DNA of 64,000 bases from an uncultured Alphaproteobacteria bacterium (GCA_963733945.1 CAVTFD010000015.1:26728-90727); one strand, 5' to 3'. Positions 56,700 to 62,741 are shown, counted from the first letter of the stretch. The notes: generated by a model not told the origin, from the letters alone. A program made the numbers and translations.

Positions 56700-57313
56700 G
56701 ATGCGCTGTCCTGAACAGCGTCGGCCGCTGTCGAACCGAGCAGCCGGGCGACGTAGCGGGCGATCATGTCGATTTCCAGATTCATCTGCTGCCCCGGCTG
56801 AGCCTCGTTGAAACTGGTGCGGGCTAGGGTGTGCGGGATGATGTTGACGCCAAACCGGGTCCCCGACACTTCGTTGACCGTCAGGCTGACCCCGTCGAGC
56901 GCCACCGACCCCTTGGGCGCGATAAACGGCATCAGCGCCTCGGGGGCCTCGAACACGAATCGGACCGATTCAGCCTCGGGCCGCCGTTCGACGATCCGCG
57001 CCAGCCCATCGACATGGCCCGAAACCAAATGCCCGCCCAGCTCGTCGCCGAGCCGCAAGGATTGTTCTAGATTGACCGCGGCGCCTTCCCGCCAGGCGCC
57101 GATCGTCGTCCGCGATACGGTCTCGGCCGAAGCCTGCACCGTGAACGCCCCGTACTCGACCGCGACCACGGTCAGACACGGCCCCGAGCAGGCGATCGAC
57201 GCCCCGATCGCGATCGCCGCGGTATCGAACCCGGTGGCGATGGTCAGGTCGACCAGCTCGCCGCGCCGCATCCGCCGCACCTGCCCGAGATCGGTAACGA
57301 TGCCGGTAAACAT
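56696..57313 (-). CDS. ribE: riboflavin synthase (alpha chain)
   Basis: MFTGIVTDLGQV..., GASIACSGPCLTV, GGHLVSGHVDG, and the duplicated lumazine-binding repeat GVSLTV. Confidence 0.95.
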   Translation of the reverse strand: MFTGIVTDLGQVRRMRRGELVDLTIATGFDTAAIAIGASIACSGPCLTVVAVEYGAFTVQASAETVSRTTIGAWREGAAVNLEQSLRLGDELGGHLVSGHVDGLARIVERRPEAESVRFVFEAPEALMPFIAPKGSVALDGVSLTVNEVSGTRFGVNIIPHTLARTSFNEAQPGQQMNLEIDMIARYVARLLGSTAADAVQDSAS

Positions 57314-57466
57314 GCCGACAGGCTACGAGTCCCGCCGGAAATTTACCAGCCGCCTCTCGCCCGGACAGGGATTAAGGGGCCAATTCGCGTCGTCCCCGCG
57401 AAAGCCGAGGCCATGACGGAAATGGGCGCCGTCCGAGGTCTGTCCGTCTCGACCAATGCAGGCGCC

Positions 57467-57651
57467 AATTCCCGTAAACCGGGAAAATAACCAGGAATCT
57501 TGTCGATTCAGCTTTTCGGCGGCCGTTCGGTGTTGAAATCGGTACTGATTCATCAATGGGTTACGGGCGAATTCCCGTAGCGGCATGACCGGGAAATTTT
57601 TGCCCGGAACCGGGAAAATATTCGGCGTAACCGGGAAATGGACGGGAACGG
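57467..57651. repeat. cluster of (A)CCGGGAAA(W)/TTTCCCGG motif copies and short palindromes
   Basis: Plus-strand copies: AATTCCCGtaaaCCGGGAAAAT (57467-57488), TACGGGcgaattCCCGTA (57562-57579), ACCGGGAAATTTT (57588), GCCCGGAACCGGGAAAATA (57602-57620), CCGGGAAATG (57631) and ACGGGAACGG (57642). The last three direct copies are about 20-21 nt apart. Confidence 0.7.
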
Positions 57652-57783
57652 AAGATTGGGACTGCATTCTCGACCAAAGGCTTGTTTCTGATCTGTTCGC
57701 ATCCGAATATCCGAATATAGGGTGTGTCCCTAACTTGGAAAGACGATCGACCGGTTACAGGAACTGCCTGCCATCAAAAGTAG

Positions 57784-58461
57784 TTACCGGTCTTTAAATT
57801 CTTGGCTGGTGGGCAGCCCTGCCGTCCTCCATTCGGGAAATCCATCGGCGAGCCGCCGCGCCCGGTAGCCTCGCTGGCGTAACAACGCGACCGCTTCGAA
57901 CGACAGAACGCACCACGGCCCGCGGCAATAAGCGACGATCTCTTGGTCCGGCGGCAGCTCGGCCAAGCGCCGTTCCAATTGCGATAACGGGATGTTCAGG
58001 GCGTCGGGCAAATGCCCGCTGGCGAACTCATCTTCCGGCCTAACGTCGAGGACGGTGGCAGCCCCGCGGCGCAGGCGGTCGAGCAGTTCATCGCGCGATA
58101 CTGGCTCAAACTCGTCGCGAGCGCGGAAATAGCTCGCCATCACGCGCGCGATTTCGGCGCTGTTGCGCTCTCCGACGCGGCTGAGGGCTCCGAGCAAACC
58201 CACCACCACTTCGTCGCCCGCGAGACAATAGTAGACGCGCTTGCCGGCGCGGCGGCCCTCGACAAGCGCAGCGCGGCGGAGAAGCTGCAAATGCCGGGAT
58301 GCATTGGCGAGGGTGAGGCTCGCGCGAGTCGCCAAATCCTCGACGCTGCGCTCGCCTTGCCCGAGATGCTCGAGCAATTCGAGCCGATGCGCATGGGCAA
58401 GCGCGTGCGCGATCTGGGCGAGACCTGCAAAAACCTGCTGTTTCGGACCCACGCTTGACAT
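57784..58461 (-). CDS. ArsR/SmtB-family regulator fused to a rhodanese domain
   Basis: N-terminal wHTH LAHAHRLELLEHLGQGERSVEDLATRASLTLANASRHLQLLRRAALVEGRRAGKRVYY. C-terminal rhodanese domain LDVRPEDEFASGHLPDALNIP...IVAYCRGPWC (active-site Cys loop). Confidence 0.85.
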   Translation of the reverse strand: MSSVGPKQQVFAGLAQIAHALAHAHRLELLEHLGQGERSVEDLATRASLTLANASRHLQLLRRAALVEGRRAGKRVYYCLAGDEVVVGLLGALSRVGERNSAEIARVMASYFRARDEFEPVSRDELLDRLRRGAATVLDVRPEDEFASGHLPDALNIPLSQLERRLAELPPDQEIVAYCRGPWCVLSFEAVALLRQRGYRARRLADGFPEWRTAGLPTSQEFKDR

Positions 58462-58480
58462 CTCTTGCTTTCTATGGAAT

Positions 58481-58502
58481 CATTCATTAGAATAATTGAA
58501 TG
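58481..58502. promoter_or_regulatory. candidate operator in the divergent arsR-rhodanese / MBL promoter region
   Basis: AT-rich 88-nt divergent intergenic region containing the imperfect inverted repeat CATTCAttagaataaTTGAATG. Confidence 0.25.
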
Positions 58503-58549
58503 TATGTCGGCGGCCAAGCAAAGCGGCTGTCGCGCTGTGGGAGGCTCGC

Positions 58550-59293
58550 ATGATCCTGCGTCAATTCCTCCATACCGACCCCGTTGCGATCTCCTATTTG
58601 TTCGGCTGCGGCGGGCATGCCGCCTGCGCGGTCGTGGATCCGGTGGGCGACATCGCACCATATCTGCGGGTGGCCGACAACACCGGCATGCGCATCCATT
58701 TCGTGATCGACACCCATATTCACGCCGATCATCGTTCGGCGGGCAGCGCTCTCGCTGCCGAGGCGGGAGCCGAGTACGTCCTCCGCGCCGGCGCCGACGT
58801 GGGTTTCGCTTTCTACGCCCTGAAGGACAGCGAGCGCCTGCCGCTCGGCAATGTCGTGGTCGATGTCATCCATACGCCCGGCCACACGCCGGAGCATGTC
58901 TGCCTTCTGGTCACCGACCGCACGCGAGCGGACGAGCCGTGGTTCGTGCTGACCGGCCACACGTTGATGGTCGGCGATGTCGGCCGCACCGAACTCGCGA
59001 CCGACGCCGCAGCCGGCGCGCGCACCCTGTTCGCCAGCCTCGTTCGCCTGAAGGCGCTGCCCGACCATATCGAGGTACTGCCCGGCGCCTACGCCGGCTC
59101 GGTCTGCGGAAGGCGGCTCAGCGGCAAGCCCTCCTCGACGATCGGCTTCGAGCGGCGTTTCAATGCCGCGTTCCGGATCGCGGCGGCAGACGCCTTCGTC
59201 GAATTCATGTTGCAGGACATCCCGCCAGCGCCCCCCGAGGCGGCGGAGTTGCGCGCCTGGAACGCAGGACACCGCGCCGTCGCGGCGAAATGA
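58550..59293 (+). CDS. MBL-fold metallo-hydrolase (glyoxalase II / persulfide dioxygenase-like)
   Basis: The ATG at 58550 follows GGGAGG. Motifs VIDTHIHADH (HxHxDH), HTPGHTPEH and GHTLMVGDVGR. Confidence 0.85.
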   Translation: MILRQFLHTDPVAISYLFGCGGHAACAVVDPVGDIAPYLRVADNTGMRIHFVIDTHIHADHRSAGSALAAEAGAEYVLRAGADVGFAFYALKDSERLPLGNVVVDVIHTPGHTPEHVCLLVTDRTRADEPWFVLTGHTLMVGDVGRTELATDAAAGARTLFASLVRLKALPDHIEVLPGAYAGSVCGRRLSGKPSSTIGFERRFNAAFRIAAADAFVEFMLQDIPPAPPEAAELRAWNAGHRAVAAK

Positions 59294-60564
59294 CCCTGAC
59301 CGACAAGGCCGCGGCGGTCCCCGCAGGCATCGCCCTCGGCATCCGCGCCAATCTGAACAAGTTTCTGCTGCTGATCCTGCTGAACGCGTTTGTCGGCGGC
59401 ATGGTCGGGCTGGAACGGACGGTCGTGCCGCTGATCGGGGCTGAAACCTTCCACCTCGCATCGGCCAGCATCATCACCGGATTCATCATCAGCTTCGGCG
59501 TTGTTAAGGGGCTGACCAATCTCATCTCGGGTCAACTGGCCGAGACCTGGGGCCGCAAGCATACGCTGGTGTTGGGCTGGCTATTCGGGCTGCCGGTGCC
59601 GTTCATGATCATGTGGGCGCCGAGCTGGGGCTGGGTCATCGCCGCCAATGCGCTGCTCGGGGTCAACCAGGGTCTCGCGTGGTCGATGACAGTCTTGATG
59701 AAGATCGATCTGGTCGGACCGAAATCGCGCGGCCTTGCCGTCGGCCTCAACGAGTTTGCCGGCTACTTCGCGGTCGGCCTGACCGCCTTTCTGACCGGCT
59801 GGATCGCCGCGCGCTACGGCCTGCGTCCCAGCCCGTTCTATATCGGCGCCGTCTATGCCGTGCTTGGTCTGGGGCTTGCCGTCCTGGTGGTGCGCGACAC
59901 CGGCGACCACGTGCGCCACGAGGTCCGCGCGCACGGCCACGGCGAGGCCGAGGCGCTGGGCTTCTGGGAGGTGTTCCGCCGCACCAGTTTCGGGGACCGG
60001 CGGCTGTTTGCCGCCTGCCAGGCTGGGCTTGTCAACAATCTCAAGGACGGCATGGTCTGGGGGCTGTTCCCGCTATTTTTTCTCGCCTACGGCCTCGGCG
60101 TCGAGCGGATCGGTGTGCTGAAGGCTGTCTACCCCGCCTGCTGGGGCATCCTGCAAATCGTCACCGGTCCGCTGAGCGACCGGGTTGGGCGGCGGGGGCT
60201 GGTGGTCTGGGGCCTGTGGCTGCAGGCCGCGGCGCTGGCGCTGACCGCGCTCACCGGCAGTTTCGCGTGGTGGCTGCCGGCGAGCGCGTTGCTCGGGCTC
60301 GGCACCGCGATGGTCTATCCGACGCTGATAGCCGCAATCTCCGACGCCGCGCATCCGGCGATGCGGGCCCGCGCGCTCAGCGTCTATCGGTTCTGGCGCG
60401 ACCTCGGCTACGCGGTCGGCGCGCTGGCATCTGGAGTGATTGCCGACATCTTTGGCTTCGAAGCGGCGATTCTGGCCATCGCCGCGCTCACTTTTGTTTC
60501 AGGCATGGTCACGGCCGGCCTGATGCGGGACCAGCCGCGAGCCCAGAAACGGCAAGCTGCCTGA
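59290..60564 (+). CDS. MFS transporter (12 TM)
   Basis: ATGA overlap with the MBL stop. Motifs GQLAETWGRKHTL and GPLSDRVGRRG (MFS motif A-like, both halves). The 699-aa track ORF is this gene plus an out-of-frame read-through of the MBL gene. Confidence 0.85.
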   Translation: MTLTDKAAAVPAGIALGIRANLNKFLLLILLNAFVGGMVGLERTVVPLIGAETFHLASASIITGFIISFGVVKGLTNLISGQLAETWGRKHTLVLGWLFGLPVPFMIMWAPSWGWVIAANALLGVNQGLAWSMTVLMKIDLVGPKSRGLAVGLNEFAGYFAVGLTAFLTGWIAARYGLRPSPFYIGAVYAVLGLGLAVLVVRDTGDHVRHEVRAHGHGEAEALGFWEVFRRTSFGDRRLFAACQAGLVNNLKDGMVWGLFPLFFLAYGLGVERIGVLKAVYPACWGILQIVTGPLSDRVGRRGLVVWGLWLQAAALALTALTGSFAWWLPASALLGLGTAMVYPTLIAAISDAAHPAMRARALSVYRFWRDLGYAVGALASGVIADIFGFEAAILAIAALTFVSGMVTAGLMRDQPRAQKRQAA

Positions 60565-60588
60565 CCCGTCATCAAAGAGGAGGAATGG

Positions 60589-61365
60589 ATGAGTGACGCT
60601 TTACCGATTGACGCTGGTGCGTTGCGCGAGGAGGTGAAGGTCAAATACCGCGCCGTCGCGGTCAATCCGCATGGCAGCTATCATTTCCACACCGGCCGCC
60701 CCTTGTCGCGTCGGCTGGGCTATGACGAGGCCTTTGTGGCCAAGCTGCCGGAAAACGCGGTCGAGGCCTTTGCCGGCGTCGGCAACCCCTTCTCGATGAG
60801 CATCTTGCAGCCCGGCGAACGGGTCGTCGATCTCGGCTCCGGAGGCGGTTTCGACTGCTTTATCGCGGCCGGTCAGGTCGGGCGGGAAGGCCATGTCGTT
60901 GGCGTCGACATGACTGAGGAGATGCTCGGCCGGTCGCGCGCCGCCGCGACCGCTATGGGTGTGGGCAATGTCGAATTTCGGCAAGGTATGATCGAGGACT
61001 TGCCAATTGAAGACGGCTCGGCCGATGTCGTAATCAGCAACGGCGTCATCAACCTATGCGCCGACAAGCGCCGGGTCCTCGCTGAGGTCATGCGCGTACT
61101 GAAACCGGGTGGGCGCTTGCAGTTTGCGGATATCGCCAACGGTAAGGAGATTCCGGCAGGCGCGCTGCGCAATATTGATTTGTGGACCGATTGAATTGCC
61201 GGTGGCCTGCCGTGCGCAGGCTGGCGGCATATGCTTGAGCAGAGCGGTTTCGTCGAGGTCCAAATCGGCCCGCCAGTTGACACCTTTGGCGGTGCCGGCG
61301 GCGAGAGCAAGGCACGGTTGTTCGAAGTGTTTGGTTACGCCTTTCTGGCGCACAAACCGAAATAG
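60589..61365 (+). CDS. ArsM/UbiE-like class I SAM-dependent methyltransferase with in-frame TGA (candidate Sec; otherwise a nonsense-truncated gene)
   Basis: VVDLGSGGGFDCF (SAM motif I), ADVVISNGVINL and VLKPGGRL. The track ORF stops at TGA 61192-61194, but the same frame continues for 56 codons (IAGGLPCAGWRHMLEQSGFVEVQIGPP...FGYAFLAHKPK) to TAG 61363-61365. This matches the usual C-terminus of ArsM-like enzymes. Confidence 0.7.
61198..61228 (+). promoter_or_regulatory. SECIS-like stem-loop immediately downstream of the in-frame UGA
   Basis: GCCGGUGGCCUGC (61198-61210), loop CGUGC (61211-61215), GCAGGCUGGCGGC (61216-61228). This is a 13-position stem with one G-G mismatch and two G-U pairs. 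The loop contains GU and starts 17 nt after the UGA. Confidence 0.45.
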
Positions 61366-61373
61366 GGGGCACT

Positions 61374-61404
61374 GAGCGTGCGATCTCTTTCAGGTCGCAC
61401 GCTC
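61374..61404 (+). terminator. terminator-like hairpin after the methyltransferase gene (no U-tract)
   Basis: Perfect 10-bp stem: GAGCGTGCGA (61374-61383) paired with TCGCACGCTC (61395-61404). Confidence 0.4.
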
Positions 61405-61471
61405 AACTATCCGTCTAGTGCGAGAGGCGCGGGCAGGAAAGCGGTCGGTCTTCTAACCTTGGGCAAGAACA

Positions 61472-62083
61472 ATGAGTAAATCTACTCTCATCGCAACGAT
61501 GGTTATCGTGCTGCTCGGCGGCATAACATCCGTTGTCGTAGCCCAGCAATCGAATCCAGTCCCGTGGAACCGGTGCTGCGGCCTAAGTCCGTGGTCAGCG
61601 ATGGGGCCGGGAATGATGGGCGGGGGGATGATGGGGGGCGGCGGCGGAAGCGGCAGAGGCGGGATGATGGGGGGCGGCGGCGGATACGGCAGTATGCCGC
61701 GGATGCACTTCGCCATGATGTCGGGAGTTCCAGCGCCTTACAATTCAATGACCAATCCGCTGCCGAGAACCCGCGAGACGGTCGAACGAGGCGCTAAGAT
61801 CTACGAGCAAAACTGCGCTTCTTGCCACGGGACAACCGGCTTAGGCGACGGTCCGGTCGGTCGAACCCTCTCGCCGCCGCCGGCCAATCTCGCGTTTCTT
61901 TCGCAAATGCCGATGGTTCAGTGGGACCCGTTTATGTACTGGACCGTCGCCGAGGGCGGCGCACAGTTTGGGAGTGCGATGCCGACATTCAAGGGCACGT
62001 TGTCCAAAGACGATATCTGGGCAGTTATTGCCTACATACAGGCCCGGTTGCCACAGACGGCGGCTAAACAAGAACAAAAATAA
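61472..62083 (+). CDS. secreted class I c-type cytochrome with N-terminal Met/Gly-rich segment
   Basis: Signal or anchor sequence MSKSTLIATMVIVLLGGITSVVVAQ. Met/Gly-rich GPGMMGGGMMGGGGGSGRGGMMGGGGGYGSMPRMHFAMM. Haem motif CASCH and distal SAMPTF. Confidence 0.85.
   Translation: MSKSTLIATMVIVLLGGITSVVVAQQSNPVPWNRCCGLSPWSAMGPGMMGGGMMGGGGGSGRGGMMGGGGGYGSMPRMHFAMMSGVPAPYNSMTNPLPRTRETVERGAKIYEQNCASCHGTTGLGDGPVGRTLSPPPANLAFLSQMPMVQWDPFMYWTVAEGGAQFGSAMPTFKGTLSKDDIWAVIAYIQARLPQTAAKQEQK
61625..61696 (+). repeat. in-frame 36-nt tandem duplication inside the cytochrome c gene
   Basis: GGGATGATGGGGGGCGGCGGCGGAAGCGGCAGAGGC is followed by GGGATGATGGGGGGCGGCGGCGGATACGGCAGTATG. They encode GMMGGGGGSGRG and GMMGGGGGYGSM. 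Confidence 0.9.
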
Positions 62084-62117
62084 TGGAGCAAGGGCCACAC
62101 GATTCAGTGGGCGTGGC

Positions 62118-62741
62118 CTAGTGCGCGTGGTCGAACTCGCCTTTCGCCATCGCGAGGTGGTGTGGCTGATGCCATGCGCCGCTGACCAGCAGGCCGATGA
62201 AACCTAGGCAGCGAATATGCTGGACTTCCTTGGAGGTGGTCGCGGTGACTGTAAGCAGTTCGCCATTGGGCAGCGGGGCGGCCTTGGCGTTCCAACCGTT
62301 GAGGCCGTTTGCCATCTGTATCCAAGCTGGGATCATTCGTTGGATCGCGATCAGTGTGCGGCCGTTGCCGGTGACGGCAACTTCCAAACCGCCGTCGATC
62401 TGTTTTGGAGCAGCGTCGGCCTTAAGGGTGACCTCGTTCATATCAATAAGATGCTGACGCAGCGCTTCGAGATCGACCTTTGACCAATCGGTCTTCGGAT
62501 CGGCGTCGAGGATTCGCACGATCTCCTGAATAGCGCCGAATGCGGCTTGGCCGGGCATCGTTGGCGTCGCCAAGGCGGCGTGCGTCCCGGCATGGTCGCC
62601 CATCGGCATCTCCTGCATGTGCTCCGGCTTCATCGAATGGCCCTTGAGGGGCGCTTCTGCGAGCGCGATGCCTGATGCTGCGAAGACAAACAGGGCACTG
62701 ACGGCAACGAGCTTACGGATAGAAAGCATGGGAAACCTCAC
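62118..62741 (-). CDS. periplasmic Met/His-rich protein of unknown function
   Basis: Signal peptide LVAVSALFVFAASGIALA. Met/His-rich HSMKPEHMQEMPMGDHAGTH. C-terminal HQPHHLAMAKGEFDHAH. No family recognised. Confidence 0.6.
   Translation of the reverse strand: MRFPMLSIRKLVAVSALFVFAASGIALAEAPLKGHSMKPEHMQEMPMGDHAGTHAALATPTMPGQAAFGAIQEIVRILDADPKTDWSKVDLEALRQHLIDMNEVTLKADAAPKQIDGGLEVAVTGNGRTLIAIQRMIPAWIQMANGLNGWNAKAAPLPNGELLTVTATTSKEVQHIRCLGFIGLLVSGAWHQPHHLAMAKGEFDHAH

Follow-up and report, generated by a model that had tools for sequence, protein, structure and literature searches.

A four-gene locus in a 64,000-nt stretch of DNA from an uncultured soil alphaproteobacterium (GCA_963733945.1 CAVTFD010000015.1:26728-90727; "the window" refers to this whole stretch) was characterized from its open reading frames (ORFs), their translations, and Pfam and NCBIfam scans. 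The locus encodes a regulator in which an ArsR/SmtB-type winged helix-turn-helix (HTH) is fused to a rhodanese domain and, divergently, a metallo-beta-lactamase (MBL)-fold enzyme, a major facilitator superfamily (MFS) transporter and an ArsM-like methyltransferase in which an in-frame TGA is read as selenocysteine (Sec). As judged from the loci compared here, the conserved unit is the regulator together with a predicted operator, and the cargo is modular. The regulator-MBL-MFS core would most likely sense and remove a reactive compound of the sulfur or selenium type. For the more specific reading, a sulfane-sulfur-sensing repressor that switches on oxidation, export and methylation, we consider the chances evenly balanced. 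The first-pass annotation of the window had described a divergent regulator with three close genes; all four were found where it placed them, and the Pfam, NCBIfam and Protein Data Bank (PDB) matches agreed with its domain calls.

Regulator loci, cargo and predicted operator

Gene neighbourhoods were compared among 80 species-representative loci with regulators 62-90% identical to that of the window. The MBL and MFS genes were divergent from the regulator in 53 of them, forming a trio found in genera that include Mesorhizobium, Bradyrhizobium, Afipia, Rhizobium, Ensifer, Aminobacter, Xanthobacter and Acidiphilium, and in Burkholderia alba. Four loci carried the Sec-methyltransferase gene instead, preceded by a gene for a second class I methyltransferase of 200-221 aa, and a single locus (L062) carried the full quartet. 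Among regulator loci with neither cargo, at least six had a third methyltransferase type, three a gene of the fatty-acid-hydroxylase family and three another MFS gene. When ten loci were collected around the Sec-methyltransferase itself, it adjoined the regulator in nine (seven with the regulator divergent and two quartets) and a stand-alone rhodanese gene in the tenth; such loci usually held the second methyltransferase gene and no MBL or MFS gene. The regulator appears as a hub with modular cargo: MBL and MFS genes in most loci, methyltransferase genes in others, and rarely both.

Three quartets were found beyond the window, two intact (L062 and L159) and one damaged (L158). Because the regulators of the window and of L062 fall in distant clades of the regulator tree (FastTree, midpoint-rooted), that of the window inside a clade with methyltransferase cargo, the quartet appears to have been assembled independently at least twice. 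Among 18 genomes of the same genus the trio was present at the DNA level in two, and in the one whose contig is long enough to show what follows the MFS gene, this is another MFS gene and not a methyltransferase gene. The four genes had been annotated as one module, and co-occurrence in related genomes was indeed found for its parts, the trio and the regulator-methyltransferase pair; the quartet as a conserved unit was rejected, since it recurs in three further loci only. Given the neighbourhood counts, the four-gene arrangement is nonetheless more than chance.

The regulator family is large, with at least 7998 homologues at E <= 1e-10 among the 8000 candidates listed, and has members in Mesorhizobium, Bradyrhizobium, Methylobacterium, Acidiphilium and Acidithiobacillus as well as on conjugative plasmids. 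On plasmids the trio has various neighbours: MerT, GDCCVxC and P-type ATPase genes in the Bradyrhizobium betae copy, merA and RND genes in that of Acidithiobacillus ferrooxidans, and in Acidiphilium a gene for a multicopper oxidase. In a Methylocystis plasmid the trio is extended by genes for DsrE, a cysteine desulfurase and methyltransferases, and in a Thioclava plasmid rhodanese genes stand in its place. The cargo under related regulators includes, in all, two further methyltransferase types, rhodaneses, DsrE and cysteine desulfurase.

Further features of these loci were recorded. The second class I methyltransferase (L039, 7307-7972, minus strand, with equivalents in L040-L043, L047 and L120-L126) has an N-terminal GFFPATTMPDxxWW and the motif DLCCGDG, and its gene always precedes that of the Sec-methyltransferase in loci without MBL and MFS genes; in some database entries (P0132, P0160) the two are one fused protein. 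The third type (Methyltransf_25, N-terminal HWQxxY...SWFQ) is divergent from the regulator in L051, L059, L080, L088, L093 and L105. MerT-like and GDCCVxC "(seleno)protein" genes stand beside the regulator cargo in L039 (5332-6490) and L150 (6632-7284), and a GFA-family gene does so in many loci. The damaged quartet (L158, G114:C325, 1709-2644) has lost the HTH domain, the operator and the N-terminus of the MBL enzyme to a deletion that fuses regulator residue ~86 with MBL residue ~73, whereas its MFS, Sec-methyltransferase and GFA genes are intact; the deletion is either gene decay or an assembly artefact of the metagenome-assembled genome.

The candidate operator is an inverted repeat, and none besides it was found in 58440-58570. 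The TCAAT core of its motif occurred in 87 of 93 distinct regions upstream of regulator genes, in 80 of the 93 at 37-39 nt upstream of the regulator start, whatever cargo diverges. The column-majority consensus of the motif is ACATTCAATCATTCTGCTGAATG. The predicted promoter of the divergent operon (TTGACA, 17 nt, AATCAT, with a TG before the -10 box as in extended -10 promoters) agrees with the consensus at 10 of 12 positions, and its -10 box overlaps the left arm of the candidate operator. From this placement we infer autoregulation and repression of the divergent operon by the regulator.

The regulator and the MBL gene are separated by an intergenic region of 88 nt. The MBL start was placed at ATG 58550, not at TTG 58496, since a ribosome-binding site (GGGAGG) lies before that ATG and homologues align from residue 1. 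The MFS start overlaps the MBL stop as ATGA, an overlap that had been reported before and was verified in the sequence, and 24 nt with a GAGGAGG ribosome-binding site separate the MFS and methyltransferase genes. A consensus scan found no terminator-like site at either gene junction; its two plus-strand matches fall inside the MFS coding sequence. The hairpin that follows the methyltransferase stop (dG -30 kcal/mol, z -4.5, equalled in 0 of 200 shuffles) is likely the end of the transcript. Because of the promoter-like site, junctions free of terminator-like sites and this strong hairpin, the arrangement fits a single MBL-MFS-methyltransferase transcript divergent from the regulator. The features are collected in Table 1.

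Table 1. Features of the four-gene locus (positions counted from the first nucleotide of the window)
Feature	Position	Strand	Basis
Regulator, ArsR/SmtB winged HTH and rhodanese, 225 aa	57784..58461	-	Pfam and NCBIfam
MBL-fold enzyme, stand-alone CstB-type, persulfide-dioxygenase-like, 247 aa	58550..59293	+	PDB sequence matches
MFS transporter, 424 aa	59290..60564	+	Pfam MFS_1, E 8e-43
ArsM-like class I S-adenosylmethionine (SAM) methyltransferase, selenoprotein, 258 aa, U202	60589..61365	+	NF008823 best family
In-frame TGA read as Sec	61192..61194	+	Orthologue comparison
Sec insertion sequence (SECIS)-like hairpin, 13 bp, loop CGUGC	61197..61229	+	Fold and comparative data
Candidate operator, inverted repeat CATTCA-N10-TGAATG	58481..58502	.	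Repeat search, conservation
Sigma-70-like predicted promoter of the MBL-MFS-methyltransferase operon	58455..58483	+	Consensus scan, pattern match only
14-bp hairpin after the methyltransferase stop, without a U tract	61373..61405	+	Fold with shuffles

These data bear on the idea that the genes share no common pathway, the methyltransferase being a recombination neighbour and the MBL-MFS pair and the methyltransferase acting on unrelated substrates. The rarity of the quartet (three further cases, one of them damaged), the second MFS gene that follows the trio in the same genus and the very modular cargo speak for it. On the other side, the Sec-methyltransferase adjoins the regulator in nine of ten loci and a rhodanese gene in the tenth, the quartet arose in two distant regulator clades, and the junction before the methyltransferase gene has a short spacer without a terminator-like site or strong hairpin, a strong hairpin coming only after the methyltransferase gene. 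We regard this idea as unlikely; it is not exclusive of the other readings, and the probabilities that we attach to the readings need not sum to one.

Downstream of the locus (61472-62741) a gene for a cytochrome c with a Met/Gly-rich N-terminal tract is convergent with that for a 207-aa protein without a Pfam match. From about 61000 on, the G+C content is down to about 0.60, a sign that the region may be flexible.

The encoded proteins

The HTH half of the regulator matched Pfam HTH_20 (E 1e-10) and HTH_5 and scored above the cut-off of NCBIfam NF033788 (70.5 bits, cut-off 55), and the C-terminal half matched Pfam Rhodanese (E 5e-18), with the loop CRGPWC (C179-RGPW-C184) as it had been read in the first-pass annotation. 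The winged HTH (residues ~1-82) and the rhodanese domain (~119-218) are separated by a long helix (83-116). In rhodanese sulfurtransferases the catalytic Cys opens a six-residue active-site loop. C179 and C184 are the only invariant Cys of the regulator, present in 81 of 81 homologues (62-100% identical) within the motif YCRGP[YW]C; C79, the sole Cys of the HTH half, is not conserved and is Arg in 63 of the 81. An AlphaFold2 model (36 sequences; mean predicted local distance difference test score, pLDDT, 77; predicted template modelling score, pTM, 0.52) gave a confident winged HTH (pLDDT 87-97), a 34-residue helix at 83-116 and a less confident rhodanese domain. Foldseek aligned the regulator with ArsR-family structures at template modelling (TM) scores of 0.66-0.87 and found no solved structure spanning both HTH and rhodanese. 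Among PDB entries the rhodanese domain best matched a CstB-like protein, 3tp9, in its C-terminal rhodanese (E 8.7e-19), by a modest margin over other rhodaneses, and NCBIfam gave weak matches to MnmH and rhodanese-related selenoprotein models.

The MBL-fold enzyme matched Pfam Lactamase_B weakly and aligned over its whole length with the persulfide dioxygenase (PDO) domain of CstB-like proteins (3tp9, E 1.4e-46; Staphylococcus aureus CstB 3r2u, E 3.4e-40), with ETHE1 (4chl, E 1.3e-11) and glyoxalase II far lower. An alignment of 54 family members showed that THIHADH, TPGHTPEH and both Cys that align with Cys of the CstB PDO domain are retained. The earlier assignment to HxHxDH enzymes of the glyoxalase II/persulfide dioxygenase type is borne out by the THIHADH motif and by the proximity to CstB-type PDO domains. 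The protein ends after the PDO domain and has no fused rhodanese, so the rhodanese is carried by the regulator rather than by the dioxygenase-like enzyme, as had been pointed out from the sequence.

These relationships could also describe a split CstB, in which the catalytic rhodanese would now sit on the repressor, loading with sulfane sulfur or selenium would induce, sulfite made by the MBL enzyme would reset the repressor via thiosulfate, and the Sec-methyltransferase would be a new chalcogenide methylase; we hold this to be improbable. If true, the split CstB would be an enzyme-product-reset sensor, a mechanism that to our knowledge has not been described for any regulator responding to reactive sulfur species (RSS), and the Sec-methyltransferase, lacking the As-binding Cys, would be a new methylase of chalcogenides such as H2S, persulfide or selenide.

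The transporter had been described as a 12-transmembrane MFS exporter. Its MFS family is clear (Table 1), which sets it apart from TauE and from ArsB/Acr3, and acr3 of this genome lies in a separate ars operon; twelve transmembrane segments are plausible, a crude hydropathy scan counting ~10-11 clear ones. No specific NCBIfam family matched it above its own cut-off, and the 25 NCBIfam families listed for it include no arsenic or metalloid efflux family.

The possibility of Sec in the methyltransferase, raised in the first-pass annotation, was strengthened by several lines of evidence, and on these comparisons the protein is a genuine selenoprotein. Each of the 13 orthologous matches (77-100% identity), which come from 11 genomes among 201 of the order, has a single TGA, and the protein sequence encoded by the 56 codons past it is 82-95% conserved. 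Of the 120 best protein clusters listed, nearly all were called at 201 aa, i.e., ending at the TGA. Among three full-length close homologues no Cys form was seen: one has W at the site, which fits a gene caller's reading of TGA as Trp, one is frame-shifted across it and one is N-terminally extended yet ends at the TGA. The SECIS-like hairpin begins 3 nt after the UGA (dG -27.9 kcal/mol) and has a G among the first two loop bases. Its support rests on comparative data because the single-sequence fold is weak (z -1.3): the consensus structure is retained in nine distinct sequences with one compensatory pair, and, among 12 distinct orthologues, no other of the 238 sliding windows has as little synonymous diversity as codons 203-214 (0.13; mean over the gene, 0.39). 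A scan of 57000-62500 against Rfam gave no match, hence no curated SECIS or riboswitch model. The same genome has selD, selA, selB and tRNA-Sec (selC), all above their cut-offs and clustered on one contig (C9:75112-79600), where the selD open frame is 796 aa long and may be fused to an N-terminal domain.

Selenium itself may be the signal. The rhodanese loop would then capture it as a perselenide or as a C179-C184 selenium bridge and the unit would remove selenide or Se(0), the Sec-methyltransferase making methylselenol or dimethylselenide and the MBL enzyme and MFS transporter handling selenium-glutathione species. Every methyltransferase orthologue found has Sec and none has Cys, the genome has the complete Sec system, rhodaneses can bind selenium, the regulator's own rhodanese weakly matched MnmH and rhodanese-related selenoprotein models, and a GDCCVxC "(seleno)protein" gene stands beside several loci. 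However, 52 of the 53 species loci with the trio lack the selenoprotein, the Sec-methyltransferase is, apart from L062, limited to a single family-level lineage, and Sec in an enzyme does not reveal its substrate. A selenium-specific unit is, on balance, doubtful.

The best family of the methyltransferase was the ArsM subfamily NF008823 (235 bits), below its cut-off of 263; the earlier description of it as ArsM-like holds to that extent. The As(III)-binding Cys of CmArsM are C72, C174 and C224. Aligned with ArsM 5evj, the methyltransferase has GVGNP where ArsM has GCGNP, SNGVINL in place of SNCVINL, and U202, in the motif UIAG (UxxG), opposite the third conserved Cys; a Cys cluster at the N-terminus is missing. 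Two of the three As-binding Cys are lost, the first being Val, the second Gly and the third Sec; Cys157 lies four residues past the lost second Cys. A survey of ArsM proteins used the criterion of at least three of four conserved Cys (PMC5552862), and the methyltransferase, with one of the four, as Sec, falls short of it. The genome has its own ArsM with every conserved Cys, 45% identical to the Sec-methyltransferase, in a canonical arsR-arsM-arsC-acr3 operon with an LMW-PTP-type arsC (C18:153510-156450). Because of the score below the cut-off, the two lost As-binding Cys and the full ars operon elsewhere, the protein is, as judged by alignment, not a canonical ArsM. Its orthologues are lineage-restricted, with 11 carriers among 201 genomes of the order and none among 400 sampled from the rest of the phylum, and the automatic annotation "arsenite methyltransferase" given to Sec-methyltransferases in many soil metagenomes is probably wrong.

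The locus may alternatively encode a sensor of soft metals or metalloids, in which the CX4C pair would bind a two-coordinate thiophilic species, for example trivalent methylarsenic (MAs(III)), Sb(III) or Hg(II), with the MFS transporter as efflux pump; the methyltransferase, missing the Cys pair that the first methylation of As(III) requires, would act on MAs(III). The regulator belongs to the ArsR/SmtB metalloregulator family by its NF033788 score, plasmid copies have merA, MerT, P-type ATPase, RND and multicopper oxidase genes as neighbours, and the methyltransferase is closest to ArsM, with Sec at the third Cys position and Cys157 near the lost second Cys. Against this stand the complete ars operon elsewhere in the genome, the lack of any arsenic or metalloid efflux family among those listed for the MFS transporter, an MBL enzyme closest to persulfide dioxygenases and not to known metal-resistance enzymes, and the sulfur-trafficking nature of other cargo (rhodaneses, DsrE, cysteine desulfurase). 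Metal-resistance islands, moreover, also hold the sulfide methyltransferase MddH (PMC11445057). A metal or metalloid ligand thus seems to us rather improbable.

Proposed mechanism

The gene identities, the Sec codon, the conservation of the operator motif, the pattern of Cys and the counts of co-occurrence are computed results. The mechanism that we infer for the sulfane-sulfur reading, from repression and ligand to enzyme activities and exported species, would run as follows. A dimer of the ArsR-type regulator on the inverted repeat would block its own promoter and the divergent promoter of the MBL-MFS-methyltransferase operon. The sensing site would be the CX4C pair C179/C184 in the rhodanese loop, outside the DNA-binding domain. 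Sulfane sulfur would be bound by the rhodanese in the form of a Cys-persulfide, which might then react with C184 to give a di- or polysulfide, and helix 83-116 would relay the change to the HTH domains, upon which the repressor would leave the DNA. The CstB-like MBL enzyme would then oxidize a low-molecular-weight persulfide, the MFS transporter would export a product, and the Sec-methyltransferase would methylate a small chalcogenide nucleophile (H2S, methanethiol, persulfide or possibly selenide) held on Sec. Such a nucleophile fits better than a metal cation because oxidation and methylation alternate under one signal; the sulfur-trafficking cargo of distant members and the precedent of MddH also point to a chalcogenide signal.

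Several points weigh against the sulfane-sulfur mechanism. The sequence TGH is invariant in the 54 MBL family members where CstB and 3tp9 carry SGD, and the Asp of SGD/TGD is presumably, as in ETHE1 and glyoxalase II, the third metal ligand of a 2-His-1-Asp iron site; AY likewise replaces the HG of CstB HGAGS, and that His is absent. The family may have a three-His metal site, and because an invariant His replaces the metal-binding Asp and the HGAGS His is lost, persulfide dioxygenase activity is unproven. The enzyme type proposed earlier can be narrowed to CstB-like, and the accompanying statement that the unit oxidizes is weakened by the same replacement. The sulfurtransferase competence of the regulator rhodanese is uncertain because its loop (CRGPWCVLS) exceeds the aligned loop of 3tp9 (CRTGGRS) by two residues and residues 179-185 are the only internal segment modelled at pLDDT <50. 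No sqr gene is adjacent to the locus, and several plasmid copies lie inside mer, czc or cop metal-resistance islands. The genome also has a separate 366-aa MBL-rhodanese fusion of the PDO-rhodanese type (C1:107548-108648); the Pfam-matching genes in its neighbourhood (~5 kb) include no sulfur or regulator families.

The identity of the ligand would give a function to a common, mobile three-gene cassette, explain why its outputs alternate between oxidation with export and methylation, and provide a substrate for a selenoprotein methyltransferase.

Comparison with known systems

The layout had been described as recalling BigR-Blh and ars clusters without matching either, and our results agree. 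A BigR-Blh operon was rejected on the Cys pattern and on model scores: the regulator reached 47.9 bits with the BigR model NF040642 (cut-off 155) and the MBL enzyme 41 bits with the Blh model NF040641 (cut-off 625). An ars cluster was rejected on the two lost As-binding Cys, the ars operon elsewhere and the efflux families listed for the MFS transporter. Among named HTH families BigR still scored best, behind only the generic ArsR model, and SqrR ranked second among solved relatives of the HTH domain (E 3e-10). As in the BigR, SqrR, YgaV and HlyU operons, an ArsR-type winged HTH repressor is accompanied by a sulfur enzyme of the MBL fold, an exporter and a rhodanese function. In BigR and SqrR a Cys pair (SqrR C41/C107, BigR C42/C108) forms a di- or tetrasulfide. 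In contrast, both sensing Cys are absent here (the C41 position of SqrR is Glu), the HTH half has no conserved Cys and the invariant Cys are in the fused rhodanese loop only; the exporter is an MFS protein rather than the TauE of bigR-blh. The RSS sensors known to us (CstR, SqrR/BigR/YgaV and FisR) all sense on the DNA-binding protein itself. Escherichia coli pairs an ArsR-type regulator, YgaV, with a rhodanese, YgaP (PMC9774250), two proteins where the present locus has HTH and rhodanese in one polypeptide.

The closest solved HTH was that of Mycobacterium bovis Mb0332 (PDB 3gw2 and 2kko, "fragment 1-100"; 42% identity, TM score 0.87, E 1.6e-15). The HTH fragment alone was solved, and the PDB titles name it as part of a longer protein. 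The Mycobacterium tuberculosis orthologue Rv0324 has a C-terminal rhodanese, and membership of Mb0332 in the same fusion family is a lead rather than a result. Our literature search found no functional study of an ArsR-rhodanese fusion regulator and no paper on Rv0324 with its rhodanese.

An ArsM-type selenoprotein family with the motif UxxG has already been catalogued among prokaryotic selenoproteins (PMC13188914, PMC9312934). The fold, Sec position and motif of that family (NF008823) are the same here; the present protein differs in being under an ArsR-rhodanese regulator, outside an ars operon, and in the replacement of two As-binding Cys. Detoxification of small thiols by class I SAM-dependent methyltransferases is known from MddH, MddA and MddM, which are S-methyltransferases for H2S and methanethiol (PMC11445057, PMC12904073). 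MddH, a cytosolic UbiE-like enzyme that methylates both, also occurs amid metal-resistance genes without an evident connection to sulfur (PMC11445057), and the Sec-methyltransferase is likened to it by description, not by sequence. The papers on the Mdd enzymes do not mention Sec or a rhodanese-fused regulator (PMC11445057, PMC12904073).

S. aureus CstB (3r2u) and Alicyclobacillus 3tp9 have a PDO domain fused to two rhodaneses, CstB being encoded in the cst operon. The MBL enzyme shares the PDO domain, with HxHxDH, the His of TPGHTPEH and both PDO-domain Cys in common; it differs in lacking rhodanese domains and in having TGH instead of SGD and AY instead of the HG of HGAGS. The regulator of the cst operon is the CsoR-type CstR, whereas that of the present locus is of the ArsR type. 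ArsR repressors that sense RSS are already well known; what is new relative to the literature found is a sensor with conserved Cys only in a fused rhodanese, a CstB variant with His for Asp, and a Cys-poor Sec-methyltransferase as cargo.

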